A stretch of 64,000 nt of DNA from Schmidtea polychroa (Eukaryota), in contig CM097885.1 in assembly GCA_044892525.1 (NCBI GenBank), positions 32,242,001 through 32,306,000 of the forward strand, written 5' to 3'. Positions 20,767 to 50,033 of the stretch are shown in pieces. The position numbers and the translations under genes are program-made. The notes under the pieces are model-generated. The model searched no databases, had not been told where the DNA came from, and saw nothing but the letters and a program-made list of their open reading frames with translations. Within the stretch, counting starts at the first letter, position 1, and every line of letters begins with the position of its first letter.

Positions 20767-22054
<1,288 letters not shown>

Positions 22055-22073
22055 AGGTAAACTAAATATTGAT

Positions 22074-22716
22074 TTACATGTATATAGTATGATATTCATT
22101 AATCAGTGTTGAACAGGCTTGACACTTGTGAACATTCTTCTCGTGACACTTAGAACAAACAATTACGTGACCACATGGTAAATACAAAACTGAAACTCGA
22201 TTTTCTTTACAAATTGAACAAGTTAAATATCTTTTCTTAACATCGTTCAGTTTTTTCGTTAGCTTATTTTCAATCAAATCGGCTTTTGCTATCCATTCAT
22301 AAATCAATCTACTATATCCCGATTTCAACCTTAAATACATACAACTCCAAAAGTATTCATTCAGTGAATCGTTGTTTACCGCTATTTTTTCTAAATGCAT
22401 TAAATAACTAGATAACTTTAAAATGGATTTATCATAATTAAATAAATCCCTCAAATATTCAATAGAGGAATGTTTGAAAACTTTTAAAATATTTATGATT
22501 TGCTTATCACTGTAAGTATCATGATTATTTATAAAATCTTCAACTGTGTTGTTAAAAAATTTCAATGAACGCTTATCTTCGGAATAGGTTGGACTTAATT
22601 TTTCCTTATTTCTAGTGGGACTTCCTTGCTATAAATGCCATATATAAAAAATATTGACAAAATAATAAAGTTACCAAATGTGTTACACATTCATCAGTTT
22701 TATTTGTAGAAATCAT
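22074..22716 (-). CDS. IAP-type C3HC4 RING finger protein, spliced (intron 22629-22674)
   Basis: CSIC...LYLPCGHVIVCSKC.....CQAC at the C-terminus. ATG at 22716 joins in frame across a 46-nt GT-AG intron. Confidence 0.8.
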
Positions 22717-22875
22717 TAGTAATAAATTTCTTAATAACTAAATTACTTTTGTTTTTACATTTATAAAAATTGTGATAGCCAATCAAAATAGAGCTTTCAA
22801 AATGTAGAAATTGTAACCATCAAATGTATAACAATAATAATAAGCATGACTAGTACCCTTGCAACCTGTTTAAAG

Positions 22876-23059
<184 letters not shown>

Positions 23060-23350
23060 GTCATTGATATAGCTGCATGCTCACTGCAGACTATATAAAA
23101 ATCACCATTAAATACTTATAAAATTATAATAAAACAACTAACCAAATACTTGAAAAAATTAAAAAAAATTCTGGTTACAAATTTTTATTCAATATGTATA
23201 TATATATAAATACAAGTTTTATTCAATATACAAGTTATAAATACAAGTTTTATTCAATATACAAGTTATAAATACAAGTTTTTTTATACAAGTTTTTGTA
23301 AATCAAAATAAAAGTTTCTTTACAATTTTCACAATTTTCAGTTGTCCTAT

Positions 23351-25431
23351 TTAAATTTGATCTTCGTCCCATTCGCTGTCGTCAAAACTGGGACTTGGAG
23401 CTGGACCGAATTCCTCATCATATTCGCTTAATTCATCAACTCCTAAATAGTGCCCAAATGCGTAACTTATGTTTTTGCCTAGCCACGCGCGCTTATCATC
23501 ATTATTACTTAGGGCAATTTTCGAATTTTTAAATGTAAAAAGTTGGTGATTTCTAGTACCTATTCTAGTCTGTGGTACAGAAATCACCTGATTTGAATTA
23601 AAGCAATTTAAATAGGACCTTCAAGTTCATAATATGGCAGGACAATTGTGACGGCAATTTCCTCCACTTTCCTTAAAAAATCCAAAATACAATTAGGTCC
23701 AAAAAAATAATAATAAAATTTAGTGTTTGTATAATTATTAATTAATAAAAGACCTGCTGATATGGGTAAATTTATTTGATGATATGTTTCATGTTCAGGT
23801 AAAACCGATTCAAAATCGGCATAAATTACGAAGGGAGGTGTAACGGTTTTTGCGTAATCTGTGAATAATAAATCCTTATTTTTAGGAAGTGTATACAAGG
23901 TTGTGCCAGTCTGATTTTTACAGCATAGAGCAACATGCTGATCGAAAGCATTCTTATATCTAAAGCCATTTAAACAATGTGGGCACCAGTTACACCTTAT
24001 TTGAACATTAACATTTTCATTTAAATGGCAATTCATTAATTTGTCCAAGTCTGTCACGGCCGTATAATGATATTTATCTTTATTACTCAAAAGTAATAAG
24101 TAAATCGGCCTACCATCTATAACCTTGGAGCGATGTACAATATTAAGATGAGGGTGGTGAGCTACATAATCCTCAGAAATATCACAATCAGAACTGGCTG
24201 GATTATAAGACAGAACGTTTATGCTTAAGTTTAAATCCGGATTTTTCCTTTCGAATTTGGGAATGTTACATAGCCTCATCGGGCAATCTGTGTCTTCGTC
24301 ATAATTTAATAGATGTAAAAATTCGTAATATTTGGCGGCTCTTTGGTGATTACGACCTATTTCTTCTCTTTTTAAAAGTGCAAGAATGCTATACAAGAAA
24401 CACTTATGGTCGTTGTTTTTAACATTAATTATTGCGTGTTTTAATTTTAATGCAGATGGGGTTTTTATATAACTATGTCCGGATAATCTACTAACGGGTG
24501 CGTATTTCGTTAAAATAAAATCTATCTCTAAAATATTCATTACTCGCCACCCGCTTCCTAAATAAGTGAATTGCTCAATCTTTTCATTTAATTTGCTCAC
24601 CCCCTCGTTTATAAAGTTTGCTGTAAAAACTTGCGCATTGTTTGAAAAATAATTATCCCGGATCTCCCCATCTTTTTCAAATTTAATTAAAATTGTAAAT
24701 TGAATTTTTACATTGCCCATCATTTCTATTTCCTCTATTAATCTTTCTTCAATTTTTGATGTTAGGGCTATTTTTACTAAGTTTTGATTTCTTATGTCAA
24801 ATTTTAATGTTTTTCGTGATCCGTTCAAATCGGATTCTACCATAGGTTCAAACAAAGAGCCGCCTATTTGACATATGTTGAAAGACGTTGACGCTACACA
24901 TTCATCATTGATGACTATCACTTCTTGTTGTGTAGAGGGTGCTTGTTGTGTAATGGGTGCGTGTTGTGTGAAAGATGTTGAAGCTACACATTCATCTTTG
25001 CTGATGACTATCACTTCAGGTCGCGATAATTTATTAGGAATATAATTTTTAATTAAACCAGCAGGTCTTTTAATAGAATCTTTTTTAATAATATTTATAG
25101 AATCTTTTTTAATAATAATAGTATCTTTTTTAATAGTATCTTTATAATCTGTTTTTTCTTTTATAATAGTTTTTTTAATATTTTTTAAATCTTTTTTAAT
25201 ATCTTTTTTAATAACATCTTTTTTAATAATATTTTTTTGTAAATTTTTTTGTAATTTTTTTTTATTTTTATTTATTTTTTTAAATAAAACATTTTTTGAA
25301 ATCGAAAATTGCCCTAAGTGACTATGATGTTTATTAAAAAATGTCATATATTTTATTTTTTCGCTAGTCACGCATTTGGGACATATAAAAAAGTTGAGTG
25401 AATTAAACTTTTTTCGGTAATATTTTCTCAT
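23351..25431 (-). pseudogene. pPolB of element B with a large internal deletion
   Basis: The N-terminal part (GSGW, INVKNNDHKCFLYSILA, YADFES) is joined near 23620 to the C-terminal KIALSNNDDKR; the polymerase core is missing. Confidence 0.88.
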
Positions 25432-25683
25432 TGTATCATGACATTGTTCGTTATGGCCAATTGATGATTGGCAATAATTTGGGTATAGTCTACCTGTTAA
25501 ATAATAAAATTAAAGTTTTAATTCAAATGAACTATATAACAAATGATGATAAATCCTTATAGAAAATAGGTTAATATATTCGAGAGAATATTAGAGAGAT
25601 TTTAGTAGATAGGTCAGATTATTATTATTATTATTATTATATGAATATGTTAAATATTAGAGAGACTATAGTAGACGAGTCTG

Positions 25684-25748
<65 letters not shown>

Positions 25749-25890
25749 AAAGAGAAGTAGCTGCATGCTTACTGCAAACTACTGTAGATGGGGTCTGATT
25801 ATTATTATTTATATATTATTATTATATAAAAGAGAAGTAGCTGCATGCTCACTGCAGACTACTATGTAGCTACGTGCTCACTGTAGACTA

Positions 25891-26050
<160 letters not shown>

Positions 26051-26169
26051 TTAACTATTGTAGATGCACATTGCAAACTACAAGGATTTATTTTATAACT
26101 ATAATTTTGTAATCACTTTTTTAAATATTTTCACAATAATTTCATTATATTTCAAAAACGTAGTATTTA

Positions 26170-26500
26170 CTTCATATAATCATTTTCATCATAAATCATA
26201 AATCATTTTCTTCATAAATTTCGTCATAATTTCATCATTTTCATCATAAATCCTTTTCATCATAATTTTGGGCATAAATCATTTTCTTCATAATTTTGGT
26301 TATAAATCATTTTCATCATAAATTCATAAATCATTTTCTTCTTAATTTGGGCATAAATCATTTTCTTCATAATTTTGAGCATAAATCATTTTCATCATAA
26401 TTTTCGTCATAAATCATAAATCATTTTCATCATTATTTTGGTCATAAATCATTTTCTTCATAAATCATTTTCTTCATAAATTTTCTTCATAAATTCGTCA
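26170..26500. repeat. Degenerate short tandem repeat (CATAAATCATTTTC-like)
   Basis: Repeated CATAAATCATTTTCTT/CATCATAA units. Confidence 0.75.
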
Positions 26501-26604
26501 TAAGTTAAGTACAAAAGTTTTTAAGAAAATAATGAAATTAATATGAAAATATTTAAAAAGTGCTTATAAAACTTTAAAGAAATATAAAAATAAATAAGTC
26601 TTAC

Positions 26605-27302
26605 ATTGCGATTCCATATCGGAATCAGAGTCCTCCTCAATAGAAGTGAGGGTATTATCCGGAACATTCATTTCATCGACTTCCTCAATAGAAGTGAGGG
26701 TATTATCCAGAACATTCATTTCATCGACTTCCTCAATAGAAGTGAAGGTATTATCCAGAACATTCATTTCATCGACTTCCTCGGCATCCATATCAACATT
26801 AAACGCTAAAAAATTTTTTTTTAAAAAATAAAATACTAAAGTAAAATAAATTTACTTTTTTCGTTGAAAACCTTGTTTTGCCCAACATCATTAACCGGGG
26901 CATTAATTTCTCCAATAAATACTACATCCTCGTCATTAAACGCTAAAAAAAAATTTTTTAAAAAAATAAAATACTTAAGTAAAATAAATTTACTTTTTTC
27001 GTTGAAAACCTTGTTTTGCCCAACATCATTAACCGGGGCATTAATTTCTCCAATAAATATTACATCCTCGTCATCGCTAATAATAATAGGTTTTAAAATA
27101 TATATAAAATTAATTTTAATAAAAATTAAAATGATAAATTTACCGAAGATATTTTCCACATTTAAAATCGAATCATCTTCGGTTACTTGGTACCAGTCGA
27201 ATGGTTCTAAAAGAATAAAATAAAATATAATAAAATATAATAAAATAAATTACCCATCGTCGTCAATAGATTTCTTAAAACGCGATTATTAGTGTTTTCC
27301 AT
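26605..27302 (-). CDS. Multi-exon acidic protein with repeated SIM-like motifs (3' end uncertain)
   Basis: ATG at 27302; GT-AG introns at 27207-27253, 26943-26993 and 26806-26855, plus one from 27143 with an apparently mutated acceptor. Exons join in frame; PIIISDDED, DEDV[IV]FIGE x2 and a 16-aa repeat x3. Confidence 0.65.
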
Positions 27303-27767
27303 TTTAGATTAGAATTAGATTTTGAATTTTTAAAATTTTAAAATAATTGTGACAAATTTTAGATTTGTCAATGTTTATAAAGAGAATGAATATTTTCCTG
27401 TCCCAGCCAATGAGAATATAGACACACACATATACACTGAATATTTACTCTCTCAACCAATCACACGCATGCATGTATGTAATGTAAATCACTCAGAAAT
27501 TACATGTGACTGCCTTTGTTAGTCATGCCTTTGTTAACTTGCACTGTGCATGCTTCAGGCATAGGTAGTCTTTATGTTACAAATAATAATATTTATTTGA
27601 ATAATAATAATAATAATATTAATAATAATAATATTAATAATAATAATAATAATAATATTAATAATAATAATAATATTAATAATAATAATATTAATAATAA
27701 CAATCACAACAACAAAGGAAAGGATACATTTATTAAACATCAAATTTTATTAAACATTCATTTTTCT

Positions 27768-28152
27768 TTAAACATCAAATTTTTTGTACAATAACCAAGC
27801 TAAACAATGTTGACCACATGTTTGGGTCAATGGATTTTGAAACATAGTTTTATTATACACAATAGGTTTTCCCATTGTTTGTAGTTTTGATATCAACAAA
27901 GCCGGGTAATAAAATCCCATAGGATCGAACACGAATATATTACCAGGTTTCACATATATAGCTATCCAATGTTCTCCACCAAGATGAGACGATTGATTAT
28001 TGACGATTATTGCTTGATTATTGCTCAAATACGGAATTTTATCAAGAGGAAAAACTCAAACAAATTCATTTCCCAATATCTGTTTTCCGATTTTATTGAC
28101 CTGAACAGAACTACTTAAATAAATCCAGAGTATAAAAAACAACTTACTCCAT
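27768..28152 (-). pseudogene. Adenain-like protease of element B, spliced, with one nonsense codon
   Basis: GEHWIAIY, FDPMG and Q....TCGQHC. ATGGA|GTAAGT...TAG|T (intron 28111-28147) gives MDSVQV; TGA stands where Gly is expected in FVxVF. Confidence 0.85.
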
Positions 28153-28177
28153 GACAACTTTATGTTTCAATATACAT

Positions 28178-29397
28178 TTATACCAACACAGTTCTATTTG
28201 CAGTAATTTGAACTTCATTTTCAAATACTCCATATATTATAACATGTACTGGTTCAGTAATAGCTTTTGCAAAATTTATATCCAGTCGTAAATTTCCATT
28301 TTGAGGTAATCGACTTTGATTTAAATCAAAATCAGGGGCTAAAACAAATGTAAAAAATGGGTATTTGCTTTTAAAATCTTCTAGAGTTATTCCGCAATTC
28401 AAATTTTTATCTAAATAACCCAGATTTCTAACAATATTCTGCATATATGTCGCACAGTAATTGTCATTCTCGAAATCTTGTATATATGTTTCTCTATAAT
28501 CAGTATTTTTCGACAAAGTCAATGATGTAACACCAAAGTTTTTGAAAATTGAGCTGGACGCAGTATATGATCCATTATATTGTGCTTCACTTTGAAATGT
28601 TATCAGAATAAAATTAGGCATTCTTCTGTCACCAAATATTTGTTCTTTATAGAATGATGAAGCACCTTTAGCAATAGCAAATTGTACAATTTCCTTTGTT
28701 TTTAATGGATAAATTGCATGTTTTGAATTAAGACCTAATTGATGACCTGCTAATACTGAGGGGTCTACGCGAACTCTTCTACCAATAATTTTGCATCAAC
28801 TAATTGACATATTGGTGTAGTAGTTGCACTAGTAAGAGATAATGCAGAATCAGACCTTTTCAGTCTAATATGTACATTAACTCCCGGTAGTAAATATTTC
28901 GGTTGATCCATAAAATCAAGTTGTAATGATGAGCACATGGTGAAAACCTTTGAGCCTTTTACCCACTTTTTTCTTTCATCATCACTGCCATAACCCATAG
29001 GAGTAAGACATGTATTTTTAGTATCGGAATTGTAATTTAAAATAGTTTCTATTAATGCCTTGTGAATGAATGTATTATTTCCGCCCTCAATCTTGATATT
29101 ATTAAATCCCAACACTGCATCTTTAAAAAGAGTATGAAACAGGAAATTGTTCGGTATTACATCTGCATTGGCATCCAAAACTTTTCTATCTTTATCTACA
29201 ACCTAAATCTGAACAGTCAATAAAGTATCGTTCAAATCTAAATATTCGGTTTGCGAACCATTAATATAAAACTCGATATCATTTCTACTATCGGTAATTG
29301 AATTCATAGGAAAAACTTCCTCAAATGCCCCAAATTCTATTACAGCCTGGGGCGACGGTCTATCAAATATACATAATTCAGATTTACCACAAATCAT
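28178..29397 (-). pseudogene. Major capsid protein (double jelly roll) of element B
   Basis: N-terminal CGKSELCIF..P.Q, YLDLNDT and C-terminal GNLRLDINF...VIIYGVFEN; broken by a TAG at 29203 and a frameshift near 28775. Confidence 0.9.
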
Positions 29398-29768
29398 TTT
29401 GCAAATATAGTTCCATGTCCTTTCATTCGTTTGTTTATACGTGATATTCCATGTCTTTTACGTTTTGGAGCATGAGCTGGAGCTGGAGCTGGAGGTTTCT
29501 CTTTATGAAACATACCTGCAACCCCGGGTAAAACTTCCCCTAATTCTGCTAAAGCATTTGTTTTTAGAGATGGTAATATTTTCTGTTCATTCATAATAAC
29601 ATCTTTTGCAGTTTTCATACCAAAACTACCAATACGTTTAAGAATAGGCAATGCAAATCTACCAATTGTTCTCAACCATCCTGATCCGTACTGTTTACCA
29701 ATAAAATATGGTAAATCACCACCAGATTGGCTACCACTATACATACTAATAATATCAGAATTAGCCAT
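29394..29768 (-). CDS. Small basic core or membrane-active virion protein
   Basis: QSGG and QYGSG protease-site-like motifs followed by an amphipathic helix WLRTIGRFALPILKR; basic tail; overlaps the MCP start. Confidence 0.65.
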   Translation of the reverse strand: MANSDIISMYSGSQSGGDLPYFIGKQYGSGWLRTIGRFALPILKRIGSFGMKTAKDVIMNEQKILPSLKTNALAELGEVLPGVAGMFHKEKPPAPAPAHAPKRKRHGISRINKRMKGHGTIFAK

Positions 29769-30779
29769 TTATTTTACGAAAATGTAATGTCAAATGAGTT
29801 TTTGAACCTTTTGGAAGTTCGATTAATTGACCAGAATCATTTCTTATATTTATTTCTATATTGTTTATACAAGAATTTGAAACAGGTAAATACATAGGAT
29901 TTTCTACATTGATTTGTACAACTTCATCTTGATCATGTTTTTCAATCCATATAGATTTCATTAAAGGAACACTAGAATCGCCAACAATAACTGGTTCCAC
30001 GATATTACTGTAAATGAACATTTGCTGATGATGTTTAAGGATTTTCGGGTTGTTTGTTCCTTCACAAATTTGTTCATTTTGTGTACATATTGGTTTAGTC
30101 AATCCTAATGTTTTTGTCAAATTTGAGTCAAATTTAACTTGACTAAGATTAGAATTTATACTAAATCTAAATACTTTATCTTTTTGAAGCTCGAAAACTG
30201 TTAAAATCTCGCTACAATTGTCAGCTAAATAGGTTTGTAATTGTTCGAGGTCTGTAATATATAAATTATCTTTAAAAGTATATGCATGCTCAGTTATTTC
30301 AATGTATGATAGCTTAAATTTGAATTCCACTAAATTATTAGTTTTTGGAAGTGTAGAGAAGTGTAGATTTTGACTGTATCATTAAATACATTACGTAAAT
30401 CAGTAAATCCAAGAAGTTTAGCATCAGCCATTGTAGAAAATAAAATTTCGAACGGCTTATTCAAGCAATTCATGTATAAATATTGACCATCATCATAAAT
30501 TATAGGTTTCCTTGATTTCGATGAACTCGTCAAGTTATAACTATCTTTATCAATAAGAACATTAATATATTCCGTTACTGCTACTTTCTTATTATATTCA
30601 ATAACGGATTTGCTATAGATTGGGAATAAATTGTATACAAATGTAAAATCCAACAGAGCAACTTTCCAGTCATTATCCAAATAGATGGGGTTTTGGAGTT
30701 CGATGATGAATTTGCTTGCTTGATTTTCTGGATGAATTAATGGACAACTATTGCTCGGCAAAATAGTATAAAAATTCAC
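29761..30779 (-). pseudogene. Minor capsid protein (penton) of element B
   Basis: FYTILPSNS...WKVALLD at the N-terminus and FIYSNIVEP..VGD...PL...LHFRK at the C-terminus; frameshift from a short TCTACACTTC duplication near 30350-30370. Confidence 0.88.
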
Positions 30780-31404
30780 TTTACTAGGTCTTTTGCTGAT
30801 ATCCATGACGGGTTTTGATAACCATGCCATTTGACATAGTATTGTTTATCCTTACCGACCTTTTTAGTTTTCAATATTTTTTGAATTCTAAATACTTTTG
30901 GGGGAGGAATGACTTGTAATTCCTGCTCATAAAATTTCCCTTGTATAATATTATTATCATTGTCTTTGATGACATACATTACAGGATTCTGTTTAGTATT
31001 TATTTTTGAAATTACAAAGACTTCATCACTCCAATTTGTATCAAAATTTTTAATAAATGGTGATGCACTAATTTTACTAATTCTAACATGGTCGCCGACT
31101 TTATATTTAGGTTTTGCAATTTTTACAGATTTTTTAGATACTGGTGTTTTTGATGTAATATCAACCGGTCTCAATCCATTCAGTCCTCGATGTGATGAAT
31201 GATTATAACTTGTTATTATTTTCGGTAAAGCATTTACCCATTTTTATTACCTTGATGCACGAACAACTTCTTTAATCTATCTCTCAATGTTCGATTAAAT
31301 CTTTCAACATGGGCAGCTTTGTATTGAGAATGTACCGAGTAGTGATTTATTTTCAGTTTATCGAGGATTTGCTTAACTTTGCTATTGTAGAATTCTTTAC
31401 CTAA

Positions 31405-31481
<77 letters not shown>

Positions 31482-31869
31482 CTAAATCGGTTTGCAAGTT
31501 ATTAGGATGTCCATCTTTAAATAAAATATTAATTGCCTTCGACATTTCTTCTGCAGATTTTGCCTTGACTGGTATTGCTCGTGCAAACCTGCTGTATACA
31601 TTAATACATGTTAAAATATATTTATTCCCATTGTTAATTTTCGAATAAGGTATCATCTCCATCAAATCCATTTGCCATAAATCGTCAATACCGAATGTTT
31701 TATACGCTCTTGTTGGAAATCTTTCCCGCATTGGTTTGTTCAAACTGTACGCAAGCTGATCTGATAACCACTTCTGGGTTTCTTTTTTCGAATTCGGAAC
31801 TCTTTTGTTTAATTTTGCCACTCCACCGAAACCGGCTTCGTCTTCTGGGTTCGTCCAAATCTTCTCCAT
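30776..31869 (-). pseudogene. Retroviral-like integrase with C-terminal chromodomain; intron 31401-31481
   Basis: WQMDL, TDLG|KEF, VERFNRTL, KYKVGDHVRIS and YYVKWHGY..SWI; -1 frameshift in an A-run near 31243. Confidence 0.93.
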
Positions 31870-31927
31870 TACAACAAGAAGATTTAAAATTAAATTTAAT
31901 GTCGGGCAATGAAGGATTAGCACCCAT
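31700..31927 (-). CDS. Possible small myristoylated protein overprinted on the integrase 5' end
   Basis: MGANPS fits MGxxxS; SSCC motif; starts 3 nt after the previous stop codon. Confidence 0.45.
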   Translation of the reverse strand: MGANPSLPDIKFNFKSSCCNGEDLDEPRRRSRFRWSGKIKQKSSEFEKRNPEVVIRSACVQFEQTNAGKISNKSV

Positions 31928-31930
31928 TGT

Positions 31931-32464
31931 TTATGATTGATTTCCTACAACTCCACCTAATAATGATAATGCCAGAGGTATCAATGCACCAATAAATCCA
32001 CCTTGTTGTTTATATATAATTTTTTTCATTAGCTTACGATTTTTATTATTTACTAAAGATAACAATGGTTTCCTATGTTTGCTCAATAAATGCTTTTTTG
32101 ATTTACTGATTTTAATTTTACCTTTGACTACTTTAAGTATAATATTGAGTAAATCATCGACAACAAAATTTGGGAATGATTGCAATATATTCATTCTTTT
32201 CATACTCGGGGCCTTTAACAATGCATTAAAAAATGGAAAACTGCGATGATTTTTAACTACTTTTTTACCGGTTTTACGTGTTTTACGGGTTTTACGTTTA
32301 GGTTTAGGATTTTTCGAAATAAGATTCATTGCAGAGAAATTTTCAGTTACAAGTTTTTTAGACGGTGTATAACTAGTTGTTGGTGGAACTTTTGGAACTT
32401 TAATACTCTTTCTAATACTTTTTCTTAATTTCCTAATATTTTTCACCCTTGCTTTTAGAAACAT
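31931..32464 (-). CDS. Basic core protein with an adenovirus pX-like C-terminus
   Basis: K/R-rich; ends QQGGFIGALIPLALSLLGG (compare adenoviral pX RGGxLPxLIP). Confidence 0.75.
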   Translation of the reverse strand: MFLKARVKNIRKLRKSIRKSIKVPKVPPTTSYTPSKKLVTENFSAMNLISKNPKPKRKTRKTRKTGKKVVKNHRSFPFFNALLKAPSMKRMNILQSFPNFVVDDLLNIILKVVKGKIKISKSKKHLLSKHRKPLLSLVNNKNRKLMKKIIYKQQGGFIGALIPLALSLLGGVVGNQS

Positions 32465-32482
32465 TATTATTCATAGAGGTTT

Positions 32483-33109
32483 TCAACTTTGTTTATAAAC
32501 CATGGCACCTTTTGGGTTGAAAATATCTGTTTTTACTCGTAAATCATCGGGACATTGTTGTGTGAAATCAAGAAATATATATCCATGAGATATTTTTGTT
32601 GCATCTTGAAATGCACTGATAAGAAAATTACGATTGTTAGGGTATGCTTGACGTGCAAGAAAATCAATCACTGTTGCATCTCTAGGATTCTTGAAAATAA
32701 CTAAATATTGCACATTTAAATTACGTGTTCGATGTGCCCCACCTTGATGAAATAGATTTTGTGTTATGAAAATAACTGTTACACCGACATGTCTGCTGAT
32801 CTTTGTAAATAAATTATTAAAATCTTTTTCTTTATTAGCTTCTTGATACAAATCATCGATAATAATGACATCACCTTTCTTTAATCGGCTGGACCAGTTT
32901 TTATCGAATCCCTTTACTATTTTCATGTTTTTTAATTTACAGAAACTTGATTGAGTTAATCCATGTTCTTCATCAGCACCCCTATGCTAATAAATCCTGT
33001 TGAATTTTGATTTGAGTAAATTTGATTTTAGTAATTTACAAACAAATAATGTTTTTCCGCTACCACTCGGACCAACGATTTGGTATACTGCATCATTTCT
33101 TAATTCCAT
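32483..33109 (-). pseudogene. A32/FtsK-like DNA packaging ATPase of element B
   Basis: ATG at 33109, Walker A GPSGSGKT, Walker B IIIDD, SRH and ITQNLF; one in-frame TAG near 32988. Confidence 0.92.
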
Positions 33110-33208
33110 TTCAAAAATTTTATAAATGTGTATTTGTTTATATTCGATGATTTAATGAATTTGTGCTCAATTTGTATATAAAGACTAATTTTCATAAATG
33201 ATTTAATA

Positions 33209-33646
33209 ATGTTAGCAAATATAAATTATCGAGGAAATTTTGATGTATCGAATATGAGGTTCCCACCAGGGAAACCCCAGCAAATTATCGATAGAAGCGG
33301 GAAATATCCGATAATATTTTTCAAGACTGGTAAATGCAGAATCATGGGATGTAAGAAACCTTTGGATATTAATAAATTACAATATCGAATAAATAATATT
33401 ATAATTCAATCAATTACCGTTACTATGGATATGGGACATAGTATCAATCTATATAACATTTCGAAAAAATGTGATTGTATGTTTGAACCGGAATTGTTTC
33501 CGGCACTAAGACTATTAAAATATAACCCTATATGTGTCAACGTGTTTGCTAGTGGAAAGGTTGTCATGTTGGGGTTGAGAAATTTGGAGTATAGAGAATT
33601 TGTTGACAAGGTTCGAAATGAGATAATTTCATTGGTCGATTTCTAA
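33209..33646 (+). CDS. TATA-binding protein (TBP)-like protein
   Basis: IIFFKTGKCRIMG, IQSITVTMD...INL, FEPELFPAL and VNVFASGKVVMLG align by eye with TBP LIFSSGKMVCTG, IQNMVGSCD..IRL, YEPELFPGL and LLIFVSGKVVLTG. Confidence 0.88.
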   Translation: MLANINYRGNFDVSNMRFPPGKPQQIIDRSGKYPIIFFKTGKCRIMGCKKPLDINKLQYRINNIIIQSITVTMDMGHSINLYNISKKCDCMFEPELFPALRLLKYNPICVNVFASGKVVMLGLRNLEYREFVDKVRNEIISLVDF

Positions 33647-33718
33647 TTGGTTAATTTCTAATTGGTTATTGATTGATTTAAACAAACGGTTTTTTGTTTA
33701 GGATTCATTTATTTCACT

Positions 33719-34135
33719 ATGTACAAAATTCCGAGTGCTGCGAATCTCATGAAAGAAATAGACGATTATGGTAAATTTAAAATTTTTATTTTTACATTTT
33801 TTATATTTATTATTTTAGAAAAATATTTAGAAGTCATGATCAATAGGATAAAATATTATTATCCGCAAATTGCTGAAGTAATCAAGGATCGGGAACCGGA
33901 AATCATCCCTGATTTGATTTTTTATTCAACCCAAATAAGAATCATGGAGGTATTTCACCAATTTTTATGGGATGTGAAAATCAACAGAACTATGAAGCAA
34001 ATGGAGCCGGAGTACCAATGCATCATCGGATGCTCATGCTGTGCCGATCGATATCGGCGATATGTCCAATGGGAGTTAGTGAAAACTCTGAGAAGGTTTC
34101 ACTACTCCCGGATTGTTGATTTAGGTTATGAATAA
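33719..34135 (+). CDS. Hypothetical Cys-containing protein with an in-frame intron at 33771-33818
   Basis: 48-nt U-rich GTAAAT...TTTTAG segment; CIIGCSCC motif. Confidence 0.6.
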   Translation: MYKIPSAANLMKEIDDYGKFKIFIFTFFIFIILEKYLEVMINRIKYYYPQIAEVIKDREPEIIPDLIFYSTQIRIMEVFHQFLWDVKINRTMKQMEPEYQCIIGCSCCADRYRRYVQWELVKTLRRFHYSRIVDLGYE

Positions 34136-34393
34136 ATGTATTTTTGTATCTGTTGTGTTTTTTTAATTTTATATTTGAAATAGTAATAAATAATAATAGT
34201 AATAATAGTAATAATAATAATAGAAATAATAGAAATATGAATAGTAATAATAATAATAATAATAATAGAAATAATAGAAATATGAATAGTAATAATAATA
34301 GTAATAATAGAAATATGAATAGTAATAATAATAGAAATAATATAAATAATAATAGTAATAATAAAACATTAATAGAACATAAATGCAGCATTA

Positions 34394-34470
34394 ATGCAAA
34401 TGACATGCAAATTTAAACAAAGACATTCTATAATCTGATTGGTTGATAGGCATGAGTCAAAGGTATAAAA
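34394..34470 (+). promoter_or_regulatory. Putative Pol II promoter: two octamers, reverse CCAAT, AP-1 and TATA
   Basis: ATGCAAAT at 34394 and 34405, GATTGG, TGAGTCA at 34453 and TATAAAA at 34464; ORF starts at 34505. Confidence 0.6.
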
Positions 34471-34504
34471 ACCCTGTAACATTTCAATTTCATCATTATT
34501 CACT

Positions 34505-34915
34505 ATGACCAAGAAAATTTCATGCACCGAAAAACCTAAAGAAATGGTACAACCAGTTCAAATGTTCCATAACTACAAAATGTATTTTTTGAAAGAAGAA
34601 ATCAATATGAAATTGGTTGCACCAGTCAAGCTAATTCCAACTAAATTTCAATTCTTATCCGGCACGCTTTCAATGATTGATGTCAAAACAATTGATGATG
34701 TTTTTAAACGGATAGATTCGAATCTAACATGTAATCAACATGCATGGTTCAACAATAGATATGCAAGATTTTATGATGCTTTTGATGAAATCAGTTTCAA
34801 GGAAAATGAAAATTGGTATATAACTATTGCAATCCAGGGATATTAAGTTGATAATAATGATGTATATTCTCCTATTTGGAAAATTATGTCTGCTAGACTT
34901 TCACAAATATTTTAG
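34505..34915 (+). pseudogene. Hypothetical protein, probably interrupted by a TAA at 34844
   Basis: The frame continues as VDNNDVYSPIWKIMSARLSQIF after the stop; promoter-like module upstream. Confidence 0.45.
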
Positions 34916-35042
34916 TGTTATATTTAATAAATGTACTAGTCAGATTTGTTTTTTCTCTTTATTAATTGCAACATAAATGCAAATGACATGCAAATTTAAC
35001 AAAGAAAATCTATAAACAAACTTAAAATATAGCTTTAAAGTG

Positions 35043-35862
35043 ATGAAAATGACTGCAGAAAAAGGTTAACATGATTATTTAATTACAGAATTATTTATTA
35101 TTTAGAATTTTTAATCAACTTTATGTTGGAAAAGTTAGCAGAAATAGCTGGTGTGAAATTTGAGGACATATTATCTATTACAAATGCCTTAAATATCTGA
35201 TGGATAGTTGAGAGTCAAGATACAGGATTTGATGATGAGGAAGAAACTCAAGAAACTGATACTCAAGAAATTGATGAGGAAATCTATGAACCTATAGATG
35301 AACCTATAGAGGAACCTATAGAGGAACCTAAAGATGAACCTAAAGATAATATTACGTATGATTGTATTGCAAGTTTTATATAGTTTTGAAATTTAATTTT
35401 CTGTTGATTTATTTCCTTCGCATTTCTGGCGAGTTGATTCAGTACGCCCCATCCGCCATTGGCTTCAATCCATGGTTGATGGATATTTTATATATTCTCG
35501 ACAAACCAAAATGGTCAAAGCATCCAGGAAAAAGAATATCTCAAAGATTGGAGAATTTAGAAAACAGTTATGAACTATCATTTGCATATATACAAAATAT
35601 AAAAATTAAATTGATTGATCATATTGAGGTTTTCAATAACTCTATTGTTGAAAATAAAAAGAATATGAAAATTATTGATAAGAAGCATGATTATTTATTA
35701 AAAAAGATTGAATTATTATTAAGAGAAATTCAAACAATCAAAGGATCAATAGAATATCTGAAAATCAATTCAACGTTACCAATTTCAAACAATATTGCTG
35801 CGAATAGTAGTACATCAATATTTAGTTTACCTTTGTTAATTTTACATTATTTTATTGTTTAA
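35043..35862 (+). pseudogene. Spliced acidic/coiled-coil protein gene(s), degenerate
   Basis: ATG at 35043, intron 35065-35105, acidic EEPI repeats, in-frame TGA near 35198 and a downstream coiled-coil ORF to 35862. The link between the parts is uncertain. Confidence 0.45.
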
Positions 35863-36000
35863 ATAAATGTATGTTTTGTTGATTTGTTTAATAATACCCT
35901 TGTGAGTTGTTGAGCGTGACCAGTACCCTTGTGAGCATTACCCATAGGGGACAAAATATTTTGTCGGATAGACTCGGAGTATATAGATTAATACTAATAC

Positions 36001-36080
<80 letters not shown>

Positions 36081-36680
36081 TCTTTAGAAATAATAATCAT
36101 AATAACAAGATATATGGCTCATTCGAAAGGTCTTGGATTAAGCTTTAAATTGAGCTATCGATGAATAATTTTCGTTGGCGGGAACGTTTAAAATTTAAAA
36201 ATAAAATAATAGTATTTTTAAAAATAATAATAAAAATAATAATATTTTTAAAAAATAATAATATGACCTTGATGACTCATCGCGATGACTCATTTGACCT
36301 TGAGAATGACCTTGGATGAGTCATGCGACCTTGAAAATGACCTTGATGAGTCATAGTATGACTCAGATGACCTTGAAATATTGACCTTGACGAGTCATAG
36401 TATGAGTCATATGACCTTGAGAATGACCTTGGATGAGTCATATGACCTTGAGAATGGCCTTGGATGAGTCATATGACCTTGAGAATGACCTTGGATGAGT
36501 CATATGACCTTGGAAATGACCTTGATGAGTCATCGGATGAGTCATGGTCTTTGTTTCAATGACCTTGATGAGTCATATGTCTTTGTTTAAATTTGACCTT
36601 GAAAAAAAATGTACTTTTAGACTTAGAAAAATTTTTACGACCGGGGGGGTACTGTGCTAGCGGTGCCCAATCCATCTTCT
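35855..36680 (-). repeat. Right TIR of element B
   Basis: Reverse complement of 20767-22054 with fewer internal repeats. Confidence 0.92.
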
Positions 36681-38621: not shown

Positions 38622-39551
38622 AATAGTGTGTATATATACCCAACCCAAACAACCCTCCCAACAAAAACATACCTCCATTACGCTTAAACCATTAGAAAAA
38701 CAACATAAAACCTATGTTTTTATAGTATTTTAACCCCATATTTTTGAAAACAACCACCCTTAATCTTTAAAGCCTCAAACTCAAAAGCTTCAAACTAAAA
38801 AGAGAATAGAAAAGAAAATGGCATTATGAAAAAGTTAGAGGGCTATTTGGGATAGGGCTATATACACACTACTTTTGATCGCAATCAAACTCCGGAGTTG
38901 ATCTTTATCAGATTATTGATTTTAAATTATATAAATTAAAAAATAAATGAAAAATAGTAAAACTGCTCTGAGGGGACAGTGGTATTTTTTTTTTCACTGT
39001 CCCCTCAACAGTTTTTTTGATCCGGATCATTTCAACCTCTTTCGTTTATCAAATCTCTTCTAATATACAAGCTGGCCAGACTCATACATCAGAATCAATC
39101 CGATAATAGCAGCACACCTTATTATTCGCTTCTCGCTCGAATACGATTTCATCGGCGTTTTAAGCGTGCTGCTCGAAAGTACAAATGAATTCGAAAGTGA
39201 ATTCGAAAGAGGTCCGAAAACAACTGAGAAATAAATGTGCACATTAAAGAATCGATCCGGGGGTGTTCGAAAGACAGGTGGCGATAATTACCGGTTCGCC
39301 ACCATCACCCGTTTCAATAATTTTTTTTTCATATTTATGTTTAAAAATAAAATAATTAATAAAATAAATAAAATAAATAAAATAAAATAAAATAAAATAA
39401 AATAAAAATAAATAAAATAAAATATAAATCTAAGATACCCACACTATTATTTTAAAATTTTTAAAAAAAAATAAACTAACCACAGTTAGGATTTGAACCG
39501 CTATCCATTTGAACCACTGTGCCAGTCTAGCCCACTGCGCTATCTAGGTTT
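38622..39551 (+). repeat. Left TIR of element C
   Basis: Inverted copy of 50677-51617. Confidence 0.93.
39475..39549 (-). ncRNA. tRNA-like Pol III unit (left TIR copy)
   Basis: On the minus strand: A-box TAGCGCAGTGG, B-box GGTTCAAATCC, then a T-run. Confidence 0.55.
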
Positions 39552-39650
39552 CAGATTTTTATTTATTTTTTATACTGTCACATTATGAAAATAAATATAA
39601 AAACATAAAAAATCAAAACAGGGTATCCAATAAAAAATTTTTTTCTAAAA

Positions 39651-42600
39651 ATGAATTGTAATATTTGTAATAAAGTTTTTAAAAATAAAACTGGATTAAT
39701 TTCTCACTTAAAATCGAAAGCTCATTTATTAAAAGAAAACAATCTTAATGATACAAATTCAAAAGTTTGTCCTAAATGTAAAGGAAGATTTCTACATTCT
39801 GGATATAATAAACATTTTGAAAATTGTATCGGGAAAAATAGAGAAATATTTACATGTCCTCATTGTAACTTTTCAACAAAACTAAATTTCTATTATTTAG
39901 AACATATAAAAGAATGTAAAAATAAAAAACAAAATTCTGACGATGAGGAATGTCATTCAGAAGGAGAACCTGATCATGTTGAAAGAGAAAAATATAACTG
40001 GGATAATTTTAATCATATAGATGAATTTCAATTAAAAATTAATGGACCTGCAACTCCTGGAGAATATATAAATAAAAATAAAAAAAATATTAAAAATTCT
40101 TTCACTGAAGCTTTAAAAAATTATAAACTGACAAGGTATAATGTTATAAAATATAAAATTATAATCAAAGCAAAATACTGGCGAGGAGCAGAAGAAAAGA
40201 CAACACCTTTAGATGTTGAAATTGGAATACCCTTTAAATATTTATTTTCAACTAAAGGATTTGATAAAACCATCAAAGAAATAATTCAAGCAGTAGAAGC
40301 AAAACAAGAAGAGGTTGAAAATGAATTAGGAGATTCAAACTTAGTATTCAACTCTTTCCAAACTTTAGTGATTGATTATTGGAGAGGATTACCACCCAAT
40401 CCTAAATCTTATATTCCTACACCCTTTAAATCTAAAAATGTTATAAATGTACAGAATAATGATAACAAATGTTTCATCTGGTCAATACTTGCACATTTAC
40501 ACCCTCAAGAATCAAACCCTCAAAGAGTTTCAAAATACAAACAATATGAAAATGAATTAATATTTCCCAAAGGATTCAAACATCCAATGAAACTAGAAGA
40601 CATTCCAAAATTTGAAAGTTTAAATAATCTTAAAATTAATATTTATGAACGTGTTAAAGGGAAACATGTTAATAGCAGAGAAATTATTCCAATTTATATT
40701 TCAGATTATGAAGTTAGAGATAATGAACCCCAGGATAACACTAGGGAGATATATCTTTTTATCTTGGAACAACAAAATAATCAACATTATGTTTTAATAA
40801 AAAACTTTCAAGCTTTTACATCACCAGAGAATCCAACTAGTGGAGGAGAAACATGTAAAAGATGTCTTCATTATTCAACAACTAAAAACTCTATGATTAA
40901 ACATACAAGATTTTGTGAAAAAGATGATCCAGCTTTAATTAAAATGCCTAATAATCCCAAGATGTATTTTAAAAACTTTTCAAATTTACTACAAACAGTA
41001 GGAGTGCTTTATGGGGACTTTGAATCTATAAATCGTAAACAAGATTTGGTTAACCAATATTTAAAAATAATAGAAAAAAATAAACTCATGGATTCCTGGA
41101 ACTCCTCAGGAGAGAAGATGAAACCAGAGAGGATGAAAGCCTTTCTAAGAAAAAGGAATAAACCTAATAGTGTTAAAAAAACTAAACAATTACCATCTGC
41201 TTATAAATTATTATTTAAAAGTAATTATCCTGAACTCATAGAATCTAGAGAATATACATAAATGATCTAGAACATGAAATATTTAAAGTATTAAAAACAA
41301 ACTATCCTCAAAATATTTCTAATCAACAACAACAAGAATATGAAAACACTTCCAACTGTTGGATGTGTAAACAACCATTTGAAGAGTCTCCGAATATAAA
41401 AGTCCTCGATCATGATCATTTAAAAAAGGAAAATAATTATCGAGGAGCAGCTCATAAAAATTTTAATCTTAATTGTCATACTCCTAAATTTGTACCTGTT
41501 ATATTTCATAATCTTTTTGGTTATGACATACATCTATTTATTAAACATTTAGCAGCAAATGCTAAAAACTCTTTCAAAGTTATAGGACTTACAAAGGAAA
41601 AATATAAATCAGTTGAATATGGAAAATTAAAATTTATAGACTCGTTAAACTTTCTTCAAATGTCTCTAGATGGAATAGCTAAAACAATGAAACCAGAAAA
41701 TTTTAAAATCACTCGAGAATTCTTGGAAAAAAATAATATTCCTCTAGAAGAATATCCTACATGTTTAGCAAAAGGAATATATCCTTATGACTATGTTGAC
41801 TCGTTTGAAAGATATAATGAAACAAGTCTTCCTAGCCAAGAAGATTTCTATTCACAACTTCAAAAAAATCATATTACAAATCAAGAATATTCTCGAGCAA
41901 ATAAAATGTGGGAATTATTCAAGTGTAAAACTTTAGGAGAATATACAAGTATGTATTTATCCTTGGATGTTTATATTCTAGCAGATTGCTTTGAAGAATT
42001 TACAAAATCTTTTGTTCTTAAACCTTATAATTATATAACAGCACCCTCTTTAGCTTGGGATACTTTATTATATACCATTTGGACTTCAAATATAGAAGAA
42101 GCTGATAAAATTATAGATCTTTTAACTAACCTCGATATGTTTAATCTAATTAAAACAAACATTAGAGGAGGAGTCTCTTCAGTAATGTGGAATAGAGAAA
42201 TAAAAGCTAGAAATGCAATAACTACTAGCAGAATGCTTTCAAAGACCTCTGATCCATATATAAAAATTAACAATGAGGAATTAAAAGAAATATTAGAAAC
42301 AATGAAAAATCCTATATTTATACTTTATATAGATGCAACAGCTTTATATTCAGGAATTATGACTCAATATTTACCAATGGGTGATTTCATTGAAATAGAA
42401 TCATCAAAAGAACTTATAAAAGAAATACTTTCAACACCTAAAGATTCTCCAATAGGTTACTTTGTAGAATGTGACTTATTATATCCAGATGATATAAAAT
42501 CAGGAACAAGATATTTCCCATTAGCTCCTGTAAGAAGAAAGATTGATATCAACGAACTTTCTGAATGGCAAATCTCACAAGATAAACCCCCAACAATGAA

Positions 42601-43918
42601 ACTTCTTTGTGATCAAACAGATCGAAGGTTTTATCTTTGTCACTATAGACTTCTCCAATTTTATCTTTCACGAGGTATGATATTAAAAAAAGTTCATAGT
42701 GTCATAAGATTTAAACAGAGGCCATTCATGAAAGCTTTTATCGAGGAGAACATTAGATGTCGAAACATTGCAAAAAGAGAAGGTAACCTTTTTAAAGATA
42801 ATAATTATAAACTTTTAAACAATTCAGTCTTTGGGAAGACAATGGAGAATGTTGATAAATATACTCATATTGAACTCCTAACTAATACTGCCAAAGATAT
42901 TAAGCGTTATAATCGTATGCTAGGAAAGCCTACATTTAAAAACGCACAAGTATTTTCTGAAAGTCTTACTGCAATAGAACTAAAGAGTTTTGAGAAAACA
43001 TACAACAAACCAATATTTATAGGGTTTTCAATTTTAGAACTTTCAAAATTACAAATGTATGAAACATATTATAACATCTTACAACCTATATATGGTTCTA
43101 ATATATCAATGCATGCAATGGATACAGATTCAATGTTTTTAACAATAAGAACTCATGATTTACAAAGAGATATAGCTGAAAATCCTATACTTTCAAATTT
43201 AATAAATTCAACTGGAGAATTATTTTCATTTAAAGATGAAAAACCTTTTACTCCTATAGAAAATGGAATATTTATTCGTGCTAAACAATATTCATACGAA
43301 ACATTTAAAAACCCTGAATTTATAACCCGAGAAATTATATTTAAAACCCCAGAAAAAGAGGAAATTATTTCATTTAAATATCCTATATTCCCTAAAGGAC
43401 CAGAGGGACAAGAAGAAAAACCTGTAAAGGATAACAGATGTAAAGGAATACAGAAATCCGTTGCAAAGAATCTTTCTCATCAATATTATATAGATACATT
43501 GAATCCAAATCATAAAGATAAAATTGATGAAGTGCATCAGATTAAAAGCGAAAACCATGATATTCACTTGATAGAATCTCAAAAAGTATCATTATCAAAT
43601 TATGATGATAAGAGATTCATCCTAAGTGATTTAAAGACAACTCTTCCTATAGGAAATAATTTAATCCCCATAATAAAAAATCTAGAAAAGTTGAATAAGT
43701 TATATGATACAAAGATTACTGATCTTGATATTTATAATGTTGAAATCATTTATCCCGAGAGAGAAATCGAGAAGCCTTTATATTCTCAAGTTTTTAATCC
43801 TATATGTTTAGAACTTAAATATTTTAATACTGATTCTGAATATATAAAAGGTCTAAGTGATAAAGAATTTAAAGATCATAAATTAATGATTCAAAGGTTG
43901 GCTTTCAACGATATTTAA
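39651..43918 (+). pseudogene. pPolB of element C, frameshifted by a short deletion near 41258
   Basis: Two ORFs (536 and 851 aa) colinear with the A polymerase; the segment SFRG...FVETL is missing at the break. Confidence 0.93.
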
Positions 43919-43996
43919 TTTTTTAATAATAAAATGTCGACAATTAATTTAAGCAACTATAGCAACCTGATCTACTTTTTTAAAAATACACCCATT

Positions 43997-44596
43997 TTAT
44001 AAATAAGAATTCTTTAACCATTTCTCCCGTTTAATTTTTTTAGAATATTCATTAGTTATAACATTAGCACTTTTCAATCTATTAATATTATTTTTAATAT
44101 CTTGTATTATTTGATTTGATTTCATTATTTCATCATCAGTTAAGATTCCATCTTCCAAAGCTTTTAATTGAAATAAAAATAATTTAGAGATTCCTAATTC
44201 TATTGACAAACAAACTTCACGATATAAACTTTTCTTTTTTGAAGTATAAGATAATGAAACTATTTCAGTTAAGAAACCATCAGCTACAGAAATACTTCCA
44301 AGTATTACTGGCGCAAGTGTTAAAACTGGTAAAGTTATAGGTAAAATAACTGTTAATATTGCAGATGCAAATCCTAAAGAATAACCTATAAATTTTAAAA
44401 CTGTATTCCCTTTATTCCATCTACTTTTAATTTTTTTATAATGTTTTAATAAATCTTGTAAATGTAATGTTTCTGATTTAAATTCTTTTACTCTCATAAT
44501 TTCAAGTTCTGTGGGAGCTGAAGGTCCCGAAGGTTTGGGGGAATAATATCCTGATGACAATTTTGGGTAAACTTTTTCTTCTCTTACTTCTTCCAT
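43997..44596 (-). CDS. Two-TM protein with YPKL and PSAP motifs
   Basis: Homologue of 6409-7020. Confidence 0.7.
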   Translation of the reverse strand: MEEVREEKVYPKLSSGYYSPKPSGPSAPTELEIMRVKEFKSETLHLQDLLKHYKKIKSRWNKGNTVLKFIGYSLGFASAILTVILPITLPVLTLAPVILGSISVADGFLTEIVSLSYTSKKKSLYREVCLSIELGISKLFLFQLKALEDGILTDDEIMKSNQIIQDIKNNINRLKSANVITNEYSKKIKREKWLKNSYL

Positions 44597-44604
44597 TTTA
44601 ATAA

Positions 44605-45582
44605 TTAAAAAAATAAGATTTTATTATCTGGTACCAATACTCGGATATCATAAGAGACTCTTGTTGAGAGAATGTCTTTATACAATTCCATCAATGCTTT
44701 ACGAACTTCATCAACATCAACCTTTTTTTCATAAAATATTAAATCTATATAATCCACAAGTGTGCTTTTAAAAATAATATTCTTACTTTTAACTTTATGT
44801 AGTCCATGTGAATGAGTATTAACATACCAATATCCATGTGTTAAATCATAACCACTTATTATAACATCACCCTTTTCAAACTTACTATTATAATCACATT
44901 TCACAAACCATTTCATTCTTTCATTATCATCATCAAATAAAAAGAAATAAGGATCAATAATCTTTACAACCATAAAAACACTCCATTCTTTACTATTTGT
45001 TGTTATTAAAGTTGGTTCTATAAAATGTTTATATGTATGGGGTAATAATGTTTTATTCTGTTCTAATTCAGCAGCTCTTTTTCTAATACTATGTGTGGTA
45101 TTAATGTGTGTTGTATGAGACTCTAAATTTGAAAGTCTTTTATTAAATGATGTAATCATCTCATTTATTATATTATATATTGTATTAAATTTAGTATTCA
45201 TAATTTGTTTATCTTTAGAGTTTAATATACTAGTATTTAACTTTACAACTTGTTCAGTTAACAGACTTTGTAACTTGTCAAATTTATCATTAAATCGTTG
45301 TTCGATATTATTAAGCTTTGATTCCATTGAATCAATTTTTGTTGTTAATGAACTTTCAATTCTTCTTGTTGTTAAATCAGTATAATTTTTATTAGCAGCA
45401 TCACCTTCATCAATTGGTAAAGATAAATCTTTTATCTTGTGTCCATTTAAATTTAAATCTCCTTTCATTGAATCACCTCTTTCATTAATATATTTATTTT
45501 CTGTTAAAGTTAATATTTCTTCTGTATTAAACCCTGTTTTTATTGTTCCACCACCTCTATTACAAGGAATATAAGAACTCAT
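44605..45582 (-). CDS. Putative fibre-like virion protein
   Basis: Close homologue of 5390-6400. Confidence 0.55.
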   Translation of the reverse strand: MSSYIPCNRGGGTIKTGFNTEEILTLTENKYINERGDSMKGDLNLNGHKIKDLSLPIDEGDAANKNYTDLTTRRIESSLTTKIDSMESKLNNIEQRFNDKFDKLQSLLTEQVVKLNTSILNSKDKQIMNTKFNTIYNIINEMITSFNKRLSNLESHTTHINTTHSIRKRAAELEQNKTLLPHTYKHFIEPTLITTNSKEWSVFMVVKIIDPYFFLFDDDNERMKWFVKCDYNSKFEKGDVIISGYDLTHGYWYVNTHSHGLHKVKSKNIIFKSTLVDYIDLIFYEKKVDVDEVRKALMELYKDILSTRVSYDIRVLVPDNKILFF

Positions 45583-45606
45583 TTATTAATAATTTAAAAT
45601 GAATCT

Positions 45607-46377
45607 TCAAACCTGTTTCAAATGTAAATACATTGAAATCTCTTCTCCATTAAAATCAATCAATTCTCCTTCTTGATTAAGAATTTTAAAATTAATATCC
45701 ATTATATATTTTCTACATAAAGGCAAATAATTTGGAGGATTCATTCTTTCAACTATTTTATATCCCATAGGAACTGTGTTTGATGGAAAGGAATGTAAAA
45801 CATTTGTTTGTTTACCATTATTATAAGAACCTGTTATACAATCACAATGAATATTTATTGTGTTTGTATTTATTATTTTTATAATATTTTCTGATGTTAT
45901 ATTCTCAACTATAGGTGTGATATAATGGTTTCGTGTAAATCCTAAAATTGTTCTAAAGAAACTATTATTTTGAAAATGAATTCCTATATTCTCTAAAGTC
46001 ATTATACATTTTGAAGTTGGTAAATCCATTTTAATTTTAATGGCTCCATTTGTTTTTTTAGAAAGTATATTATTTAAATCTTTTATCTCATAAGCTCCAG
46101 GTTCGATTGTTATTATAATCTTATCTGTAGATTTTGGGCTTATATAATAAAATATGTTATTATCTTTAGTTATATTAAAAATAGTATTATAAGCACAAAA
46201 CCATAATAGACCTAATTCATAATTTAAATCTTGATCTAATTTTATTGAATCTTGAAAGTTTATAGTAAAGTCTGATTCTTTTGAATTTATAGATAAAGTT
46301 CTTGAATATTTATCTGACATTATGTTTACCATTTTTTTTAAATTATCTTCCAGAAGGTTGCGAAGCTCCATTTTCAT
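45607..46377 (-). CDS. Minor capsid protein (penton)
   Basis: Close homologue of 4601-5365. Confidence 0.85.
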   Translation of the reverse strand: MKMELRNLLEDNLKKMVNIMSDKYSRTLSINSKESDFTINFQDSIKLDQDLNYELGLLWFCAYNTIFNITKDNNIFYYISPKSTDKIIITIEPGAYEIKDLNNILSKKTNGAIKIKMDLPTSKCIMTLENIGIHFQNNSFFRTILGFTRNHYITPIVENITSENIIKIINTNTINIHCDCITGSYNNGKQTNVLHSFPSNTVPMGYKIVERMNPPNYLPLCRKYIMDINFKILNQEGELIDFNGEEISMYLHLKQV

Positions 46378-46505
46378 AATAGAGATTTTAAATCATTATA
46401 AATTTCTTGGATTAAGGAAGTGAAACCTTCTCCTTTGGATTTATTCAATCTATACAAAACATATAAACTTATAATACCACATATTTTAGTATTATTAGGT
46501 TGAAC
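46374..46505 (-). pseudogene. 3' remnant of the protease gene
   Basis: Reads VQPNNTKICGIISLYVLYRLNK...IQEIYNDLKSLL*, matching the end of 4088-4552. Confidence 0.85.
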
Positions 46506-47281: not shown

Positions 47282-47292
47282 GGCTTGTCGAC

Positions 47293-49895: not shown

Positions 49896-49951
49896 TTTTA
49901 TATATTAAAATTTACACACACACAATAGGATTAATTATATATATTATGTAA

Positions 49952-50033
49952 CCCATTATAGCGGAGTGGGAATAGGCTTCAATTTTATCACCGGGAGTAC
50001 CGGGTTCAATTTTCGATTTTGGTCAATTTTTTT
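49952..50033 (+). ncRNA. tRNA-like Pol III unit 1
   Basis: A-box TAGCGGAGTGG at 49959, GGGTTCAATT B-box-like motif at tRNA spacing and a T7 terminator. Confidence 0.5.

Follow-up and report, generated by a model that had tools for sequence, protein, structure and literature searches.

General features of element A

The window, that is the whole stretch of DNA analysed, comprises 64,000 nucleotides of the Schmidtea polychroa genome (GCA_044892525.1, contig CM097885.1, positions 32,242,001 to 32,306,000 of the forward strand). It contains element A (Table 1), the arms of which (21416-21805 and 35989-36378) are 98% complementary and both ends of which are flanked by GAATTG. Judged by its structure and gene content this element belongs to the Polinton/Maverick family: it carries a retroviral-like DDE integrase, a packaging ATPase and an adenovirus-like protease. 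The ATPase shares 75% identity with the ATPases of loci L001, L002, L004, L005 and L009. The probable capsid ORF, which we take to be the major capsid gene from its position and a motif, has no Pfam capsid match; syntenic conserved ORFs are present in L001, L002 and L005 (48-68% identity). The N-terminal part of PolB also lacks a Pfam match, and shows 27% identity over 257 amino acids to the N-terminal portion of a PF03175 protein of the window. From its motif the short remnant which follows is presumably the PolB C-terminus, and the PolB core appears to have been deleted in this copy. The element is decayed, with a frame break in the integrase and stops in the ATPase, protease and probable capsid genes.

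Two further ORFs of element A are a TBP-like ORF (33209-33646, plus strand; PF00352, E 2e-15), which is also found beside the ATPase in L001 and L009, and a RING-finger ORF (22074-22628, minus strand; PF13920) adjoining the left terminal repeat. Elsewhere in the window a second Polinton (38625-51614; 794-nt arms, 99% complementary) possesses PolB, ATPase and double-jelly-roll capsid (PF21738) genes. Its integrase carries a fused phospholipase A2-like domain (PF08398) and lacks an insert at the corresponding motif. An open PolB frame of 1476 codons, which has a zinc finger at its N-terminus, is located at 7678-12108, with a 98%-identical partial copy at 3-2924, and a single-ORF major facilitator transporter (PF07690) lies outside the elements at 53697-55079 on the minus strand.

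Table 1. Features of element A and of its interrupted integrase gene (window coordinates)
Feature	Position	Strand	Remarks
Polinton/Maverick element A	20767..36680	.	15,914 bp; terminal inverted repeats; AGTAG left end; 6-bp target duplication GAATTG
N-terminal part of PolB	23608..25493	-	627 open codons; short remnant directly after
Candidate spliced PolB leader	25494..27302	-	four small exons, four phase-1 introns
Candidate PolB leader introns	27207-27253, 26943-27143, 26806-26855, 25494-26604	-	phase 1
Adenain-type protease gene	27768..28152	-	PF00770 above cut-off; one premature stop in window copy
Probable major capsid gene	28178..29400	-	stop near 29203; frame change near 28780
Integrase exon 2, C-terminal chromodomain	30776..31400	-	PF00385 weak; frame broken near 31240 here
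3' copy of 8-nt repeat TTTAGGTA	31398..31405	-	acceptor + exon 2 start
Candidate GT-AG intron of integrase gene	31401..31481	-	phase 1; 81 nt, GT(ATT)25TTAG; same codon interrupted in P0121, P0054, P0134, P0073
Perfect ATT microsatellite	31405..31480	-	TRF: 25.3 perfect AAT units
5' copy of 8-nt repeat TTTAGGTA	31479..31486	-	exon 1 end + donor
Integrase exon 1	31482..31875	-	131 codons + one base; first two acidic motifs; PF00665
Packaging ATPase (A32-like)	32483..33109	-	PF04665 weak; in-frame stop near 32988
Candidate intron, unnamed accessory ORF	33771..33818	+	phase 1; 48 nt; last 10 nt identical to those of integrase insert

The interruption of the integrase gene

On the minus strand the gene reads ...GATTTAG/GT(ATT)25TTAG/GTAAAGAATTC (slashes mark the boundaries of the insert), the interruption falling at TDLG/KEF of an rve integrase (PF00665, E 4e-6 for the ORF carrying the insert). 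With respect to the curated cut-off for PF00665 the pieces of the split integrase score below, and the homologue P0002 above. Direct reading and TRF bear out the sequence-only reading of this DNA, which had noticed an 81-nt in-frame ATT segment interrupting the integrase motif. The segment is free of stops, and read-through would add 27 residues, 25 of them isoleucine. The direct repeat said to flank it is also present, as TTTAGGTA, exactly 8 nt long with its copies 81 nt apart and no further extension, and so is the AG/GT proto-splice site.

It had further been claimed that the insert splits the catalytic motif. The QTDLG of a close uninterrupted homologue aligns with the QTDNG/NTDNG of solved retroviral integrases (PDB matches), and we take the Asp of TDLG to be the second DDE residue. 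Since the insert sits two codons past this Asp, what it splits is not the catalytic residue but the loop after it; the interruption at TDLG/KEF stands, with the break displaced into that loop.

Intron hallmarks and other candidate introns

The insert (GTATTA...ATTATTTTAG) shows the GT...AG ends, T-rich 3' end and host-like length of U2-type introns; it is 65% T, and its 81 nt compare with 34-67 nt in the other short candidates of the element. Its donor, GTATTA, is weaker than the GTAAAT, GTAATT, GTAAGA and GTAAGT of the element's other introns. The branch motif YTRAY was not found in the insert and is missing from five of the six other candidates as well, so the host may not need it.

Sequence is shared among the candidate introns of the window at their ends only. 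In the protease gene a candidate intron of 34 or 37 nt (28114 or 28111 to 28147) follows the ATG and two further nucleotides. All three copies compared (window, L002 and L005) have ATGNN/GTAAGT, an acceptor 34-47 nt further along that is in frame, and no start that would do without splicing; their proteins are approximately 55% identical and have the intron position in common. A 47-nt model of this intron was ruled out by comparison with L002 and L005.

For the PolB leader chain to stay open the first of two copies of a duplicated exon has to be skipped, an exon choice made after the result had been seen; with both copies included the chain runs into stops. The duplication is a 138-bp tandem one (26797-27074), taking in a leader exon and an intron; the first of its copies is shorter by 4 nt and does not keep the frame. 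The last leader intron contains three AAT/ATT tracts. For the candidate at 33771-33818 no homologue was found that could confirm it, and another in an ORF near 35049 was discarded, its frame not being open. Taken together the candidates in the protease gene, the PolB leader and the interrupted integrase suggest that the core genes of element A are not intronless.

A scan for GT-AG segments with a G+C content of up to 8.5% returned six in element A, the insert included, and none elsewhere in the window, compared with a mean of 1.06 and a maximum of five in 100 block shuffles; this cut-off was chosen after the candidates had been seen, and at up to 16% seven more are found elsewhere in the window.

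The direct repeat and the ATT tracts

The sequence-only reading derived the insert from duplication of an AGGT site. The other introns of element A end with TTTAG and begin with GTA, and a TTTAG acceptor and GTA donor at a proto-splice site lead one to expect an 8-bp repeat from the splice consensus, which is no proof of duplication. Since consensus explains the repeat, it does not discriminate between duplication and insertion, and the case for AGGT duplication is weak. Nor were the marks of a gain by tandem duplication found: the repeat stops at 8 nt and the interior consists of ATT only, not of copied exon.

Element A contains 14 ATT/AAT tracts of at least five units, and the 13 other than that of the insert are all outside the called coding exons. 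Among the ten tract regions examined the insert alone is bracketed by an 8-nt repeat, the remaining nine having none longer than 5 nt. Each terminal repeat carries such a tract at the equivalent place (21689-21919 and 35989-36105), of 77 and 39 units respectively (TRF), so tract length changes freely within one element. A short CTGCAGTGAGCATGCAGCTA-like motif stands just before the AAT tracts at about 23065-23090, 25760-25780 and 25835-25860 (minus strand), and may be a repeat-associated small element.

These observations bear on a one-step origin, in which the intron would have been created de novo by duplicating TTTAGGTA around a microsatellite fill, independently of that in the P0054/P0073 clade described below, through repair of a staggered break or by way of a truncated repeat-tailed retroelement. 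The repeat is perfect with only ATT between its copies, and the accessible text of two papers documents duplication of AGGT as well as parallel gains at a single site (PMC3443670; PMC4202315). We nevertheless consider such an origin quite improbable, given that the repeat is expected from the splice consensus, that the other nine tract regions have no comparable repeat, that the nearly identical homologue P0121 is not pure ATT, and that flanking repeats of at least 5 bp are also reported for 26% of conserved Drosophila introns (PMC3443670, accessible text).

Homologues interrupted at the same codon

In the best 120 of 792 homologues TDxG-xEF/Y is gap-free in 116 and not contiguous in four; the flanks of the insert are therefore contiguous in the intron-less homologues. 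P0121, which is 98% identical over exon 1, reads TDLG followed by INIIIFIIELKGFTMIL and a stop. P0054 and P0134 end with TDLGKIII and P0073 with TDLGN; these three represent two more distant lineages (72-73% identity). The interruption is thus not private to one copy, as the same codon breaks in P0121, P0054, P0134 and P0073. Their introns are deduced from ORF ends in protein sequences, and the endings would fit AT-rich sequence after a GT donor that lies within the Gly codon. Such recurrence suggests that the intron interpretation of the sequence-only reading is probably right.

Two separately called C-terminal halves, P0159 and P0158, come from contigs which match those of P0054 (JGI, 3759) and P0073 (Logan, 1550) in source and length; pairing them on this basis would place P0159 with P0054, and P0158 with P0073, on the same contigs, and these are probably split genes and not contig ends. 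In P0003, a 98% identical family copy from ENA and cluster-mate of P0121, TDLG jumps directly to the last 14 residues, from which we infer a deletion starting at the 5' end of the intron. P0080 and P0151 likewise break off at the TDLG motif, and were left uncounted since they may be contig ends.

The motif is uninterrupted in all ten DNA loci which hold it, three of them having AG/GT at this point, and a genome scan gave three loci, two with the motif and both uninterrupted. The uninterrupted P0002 and P0001 are 77% and 76% identical, compared with the 72-73% of the interrupted P0054, P0134 and P0073 lineages. No uninterrupted protein exceeded 78% exon-1 identity among the 66 homologues compared, and the near-identical homologues among the matches listed are all interrupted. 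A profile search of cluster representatives (best 150 of 27,410) gave no further interrupted protein under the motif rule; 48 of the 336 proteins could not be classed by that rule. The exact flank pattern had no matches in metagenome contigs, no relatives were found in two scans of viral contigs, and the P0121 tail had no match reaching 6 of 9 residues in any frame of the window. Loci L053, L054 and L055, Polinton-type integrases in bacterial genome bins, are probably misfiled eukaryotic DNA.

An inactivating insertion would account for the insert in another way. An ATT-rich repair patch with a short duplication would have landed at a fragile spot in dead copies, never to be spliced, and the breaks in the relatives would be separate lesions or assembly ends. 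The many other lesions of the window copy, the abundance of ATT tracts in the genome, the P0003 jump, which shows that the TDLG site can be a deletion endpoint, and the possible contig ends of P0080 and P0151 all lend it some colour. Against it, the same codon is struck in three lineages, the insert has the same ends as the other introns of the element, among them one whose position relatives have kept, and, as described above, the near-identical homologues among the matches listed are interrupted and no uninterrupted protein exceeds 78% exon-1 identity among the 66 compared. We regard it as unlikely, the more so in view of the selection discussed next.

Probable selection on the split integrase and the number of gains

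P0073, P0054 and P0134 form one clade (support 100/99). Between P0054 and P0073 there are differences in 1/40 conserved as against 25/91 other columns, and between their C-terminal halves in 2/45 as against 32/116. Provided that the interruption is ancestral to this clade, selection would have persisted on both halves with the interruption present, a pattern which points to a functional protein and so to splicing, and which an inactivating insertion does not predict.

For the family of the window copy we turned to contigs from four runs (X1, X4, X8 and X11) aligned to 30650-31424, of which 31395-31424 is uncovered. The family is abundant, with 9,784 contigs of run X1 across 775 bases. In exon 2, 23 of 31 listed contig variants are synonymous as against an expectation of 20-30%; the 31 come from 40 listed of 76 variant rows, and the excess says nothing on whether those contigs carry the insert. 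At 31240 the length of the contigs departs from that of the window in roughly half of the summed depth for X1 and X4, and in the whole of it for X8 and X11, so the frame break there is not family-wide. The contig of X11 record 16 starts at about 31405, the point at which spliced and unspliced sequences would merge, and was not counted because a variant 30 letters inside gives the same start.

In the free tree (27 rows, picked among the closest matches) the two interrupted groups stand apart, requiring two changes, and only 384 of 1000 bootstrap trees join them, both of which would suit an independent one-step origin; by the AU test a single interrupted clade is not rejected (p=0.42), which tells against it. 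An earlier tree had 67 rows, and was made from exon 1 only with a quick search. On these trees the intron may have been gained once or twice, either number fitting the data.

A probable lineage-restricted spliceosomal intron

The GT-AG ends, the exact interruption of the motif, the breaks at the same codon in relatives and the conserved flanking halves make an intron the best reading of the insert. With reasonable confidence we propose that it is an ordinary U2-type spliceosomal intron, restricted to certain lineages, which arose at an AG/GT proto-splice site and which the host splices out, and that its pure ATT composition is a later product of slippage expansion. Most likely it was inherited by a subset of Polinton families. 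Its presence in some close families and absence from others would date the gain as recent. The gain, once or twice, would have taken place late at an exonic TTAG/GTAAA, as a short AT-rich intron like the others of the element, which the host spliceosome would remove from the integrase mRNA. Slippage would then have homogenised the interior to (ATT)25 in the lineage of the window copy, as elsewhere in the non-coding sequence of the element. Beyond tying integrase expression to host splicing the intron need have no special role.

The sequence-only reading had the proto-splice site filled with microsatellite from the outset. The other interrupted proteins, if the intron is retained, read INIIIFIIE..., KIII-stop or N-stop, ending within 1-17 codons. 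Such tails point to AT-rich but not pure-ATT intron sequence in the relatives, and a pure microsatellite as the original fill is not borne out. The early stops also make the proposed poly-Ile splicing switch unlikely, since retention in those lineages would truncate the protein, and we found no support for it.

More generally the host or the element might control removal of the intron and so turn the integrase on or off, as with the third intron of the P element. The position, by structural alignment, would guarantee an inactive product on retention, the donor is weak, and splicing control of a transposase has precedent (PMC4647562, accessible text). There is no conserved retained product, however, only poly-Ile in the window copy and stops in other lineages, and 116 of the 120 best relatives (of 792) manage without the intron. 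We think regulated retention very improbable indeed. The bolder combination of independent gains in two Polinton lineages, a pure-triplet intron which is still spliced without a branch consensus, and, for the host, a means of acting through splicing on the integration of an element with very many copies is itself unlikely.

If the intron is spliced, the integrase would be one more core Polinton gene reliant on the host spliceosome; this would imply that host machinery transcribes it in the nucleus, and ORF-based surveys would wrongly score such families as dead. The element being multi-copy, many alleles could be compared for intron gain, and GT plus (ATT)25 plus TTAG would be a minimal natural test of what the spliceosome requires.

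Comparison with known systems

The comparisons which follow refer to the accessible portions of the papers cited. Element A resembles vertebrate and nematode Polintons in its terminal inverted repeats, 6-bp target duplication, retroviral-like integrase, ATPase, adenovirus-like protease and putative PolB. The core genes are intronless in the vertebrate elements (PMC8097293) and also in those of nematodes, where introns are found in cargo genes only (bioRxiv 10.1101/2022.07.12.499685); in contrast, those of element A (integrase, protease and PolB leader) have host-style candidate introns. In the literature searched, the coverage of which was incomplete, no paper described an intron within the integrase gene of a Polinton, and the accessible text of PMC6431247, PMC10748475 and PMC8502044 made no mention of Polinton genes with spliceosomal introns.

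Transposase genes with introns are already known. The Gypsy-type integrase/transposase gene of Ginger1 has 1-4 introns, mostly GT-AG (PMC2836005). Ginger1 differs in being a cut-and-paste element without viral genes, and neither a microsatellite fill nor a common intron position was found in the accessible text of that paper. Spliceosomal introns do occur inside Maverick/Polinton-like elements as the introners of dinoflagellate Polinton-like viruses (PMC11957031), but these are multi-copy mobile introns, whereas the candidates of element A share their ends only.

Intron gains attributed to AGGT duplication or break repair (PMC3443670; Daphnia, PMC4202315; Drosophila, PMC2809761) have in common with the integrase insert AG/GT at both ends, a short flanking repeat, patchy presence in close relatives and possible parallel gain. 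They differ in that the interior of our insert is not copied from the neighbouring exon. PMC3443670 also cautions on background flanking repeats, and the insert, a stop-free multiple of three, belongs to a class depleted among new introns according to PMC2809761. Lastly, the tandem-repeat introns of human paralogues (PMC2812944) show that coding repeat arrays can be spliced as new introns; those mostly have longer units and variable boundaries, while in the integrase of element A a triplet run fills the whole candidate intron.
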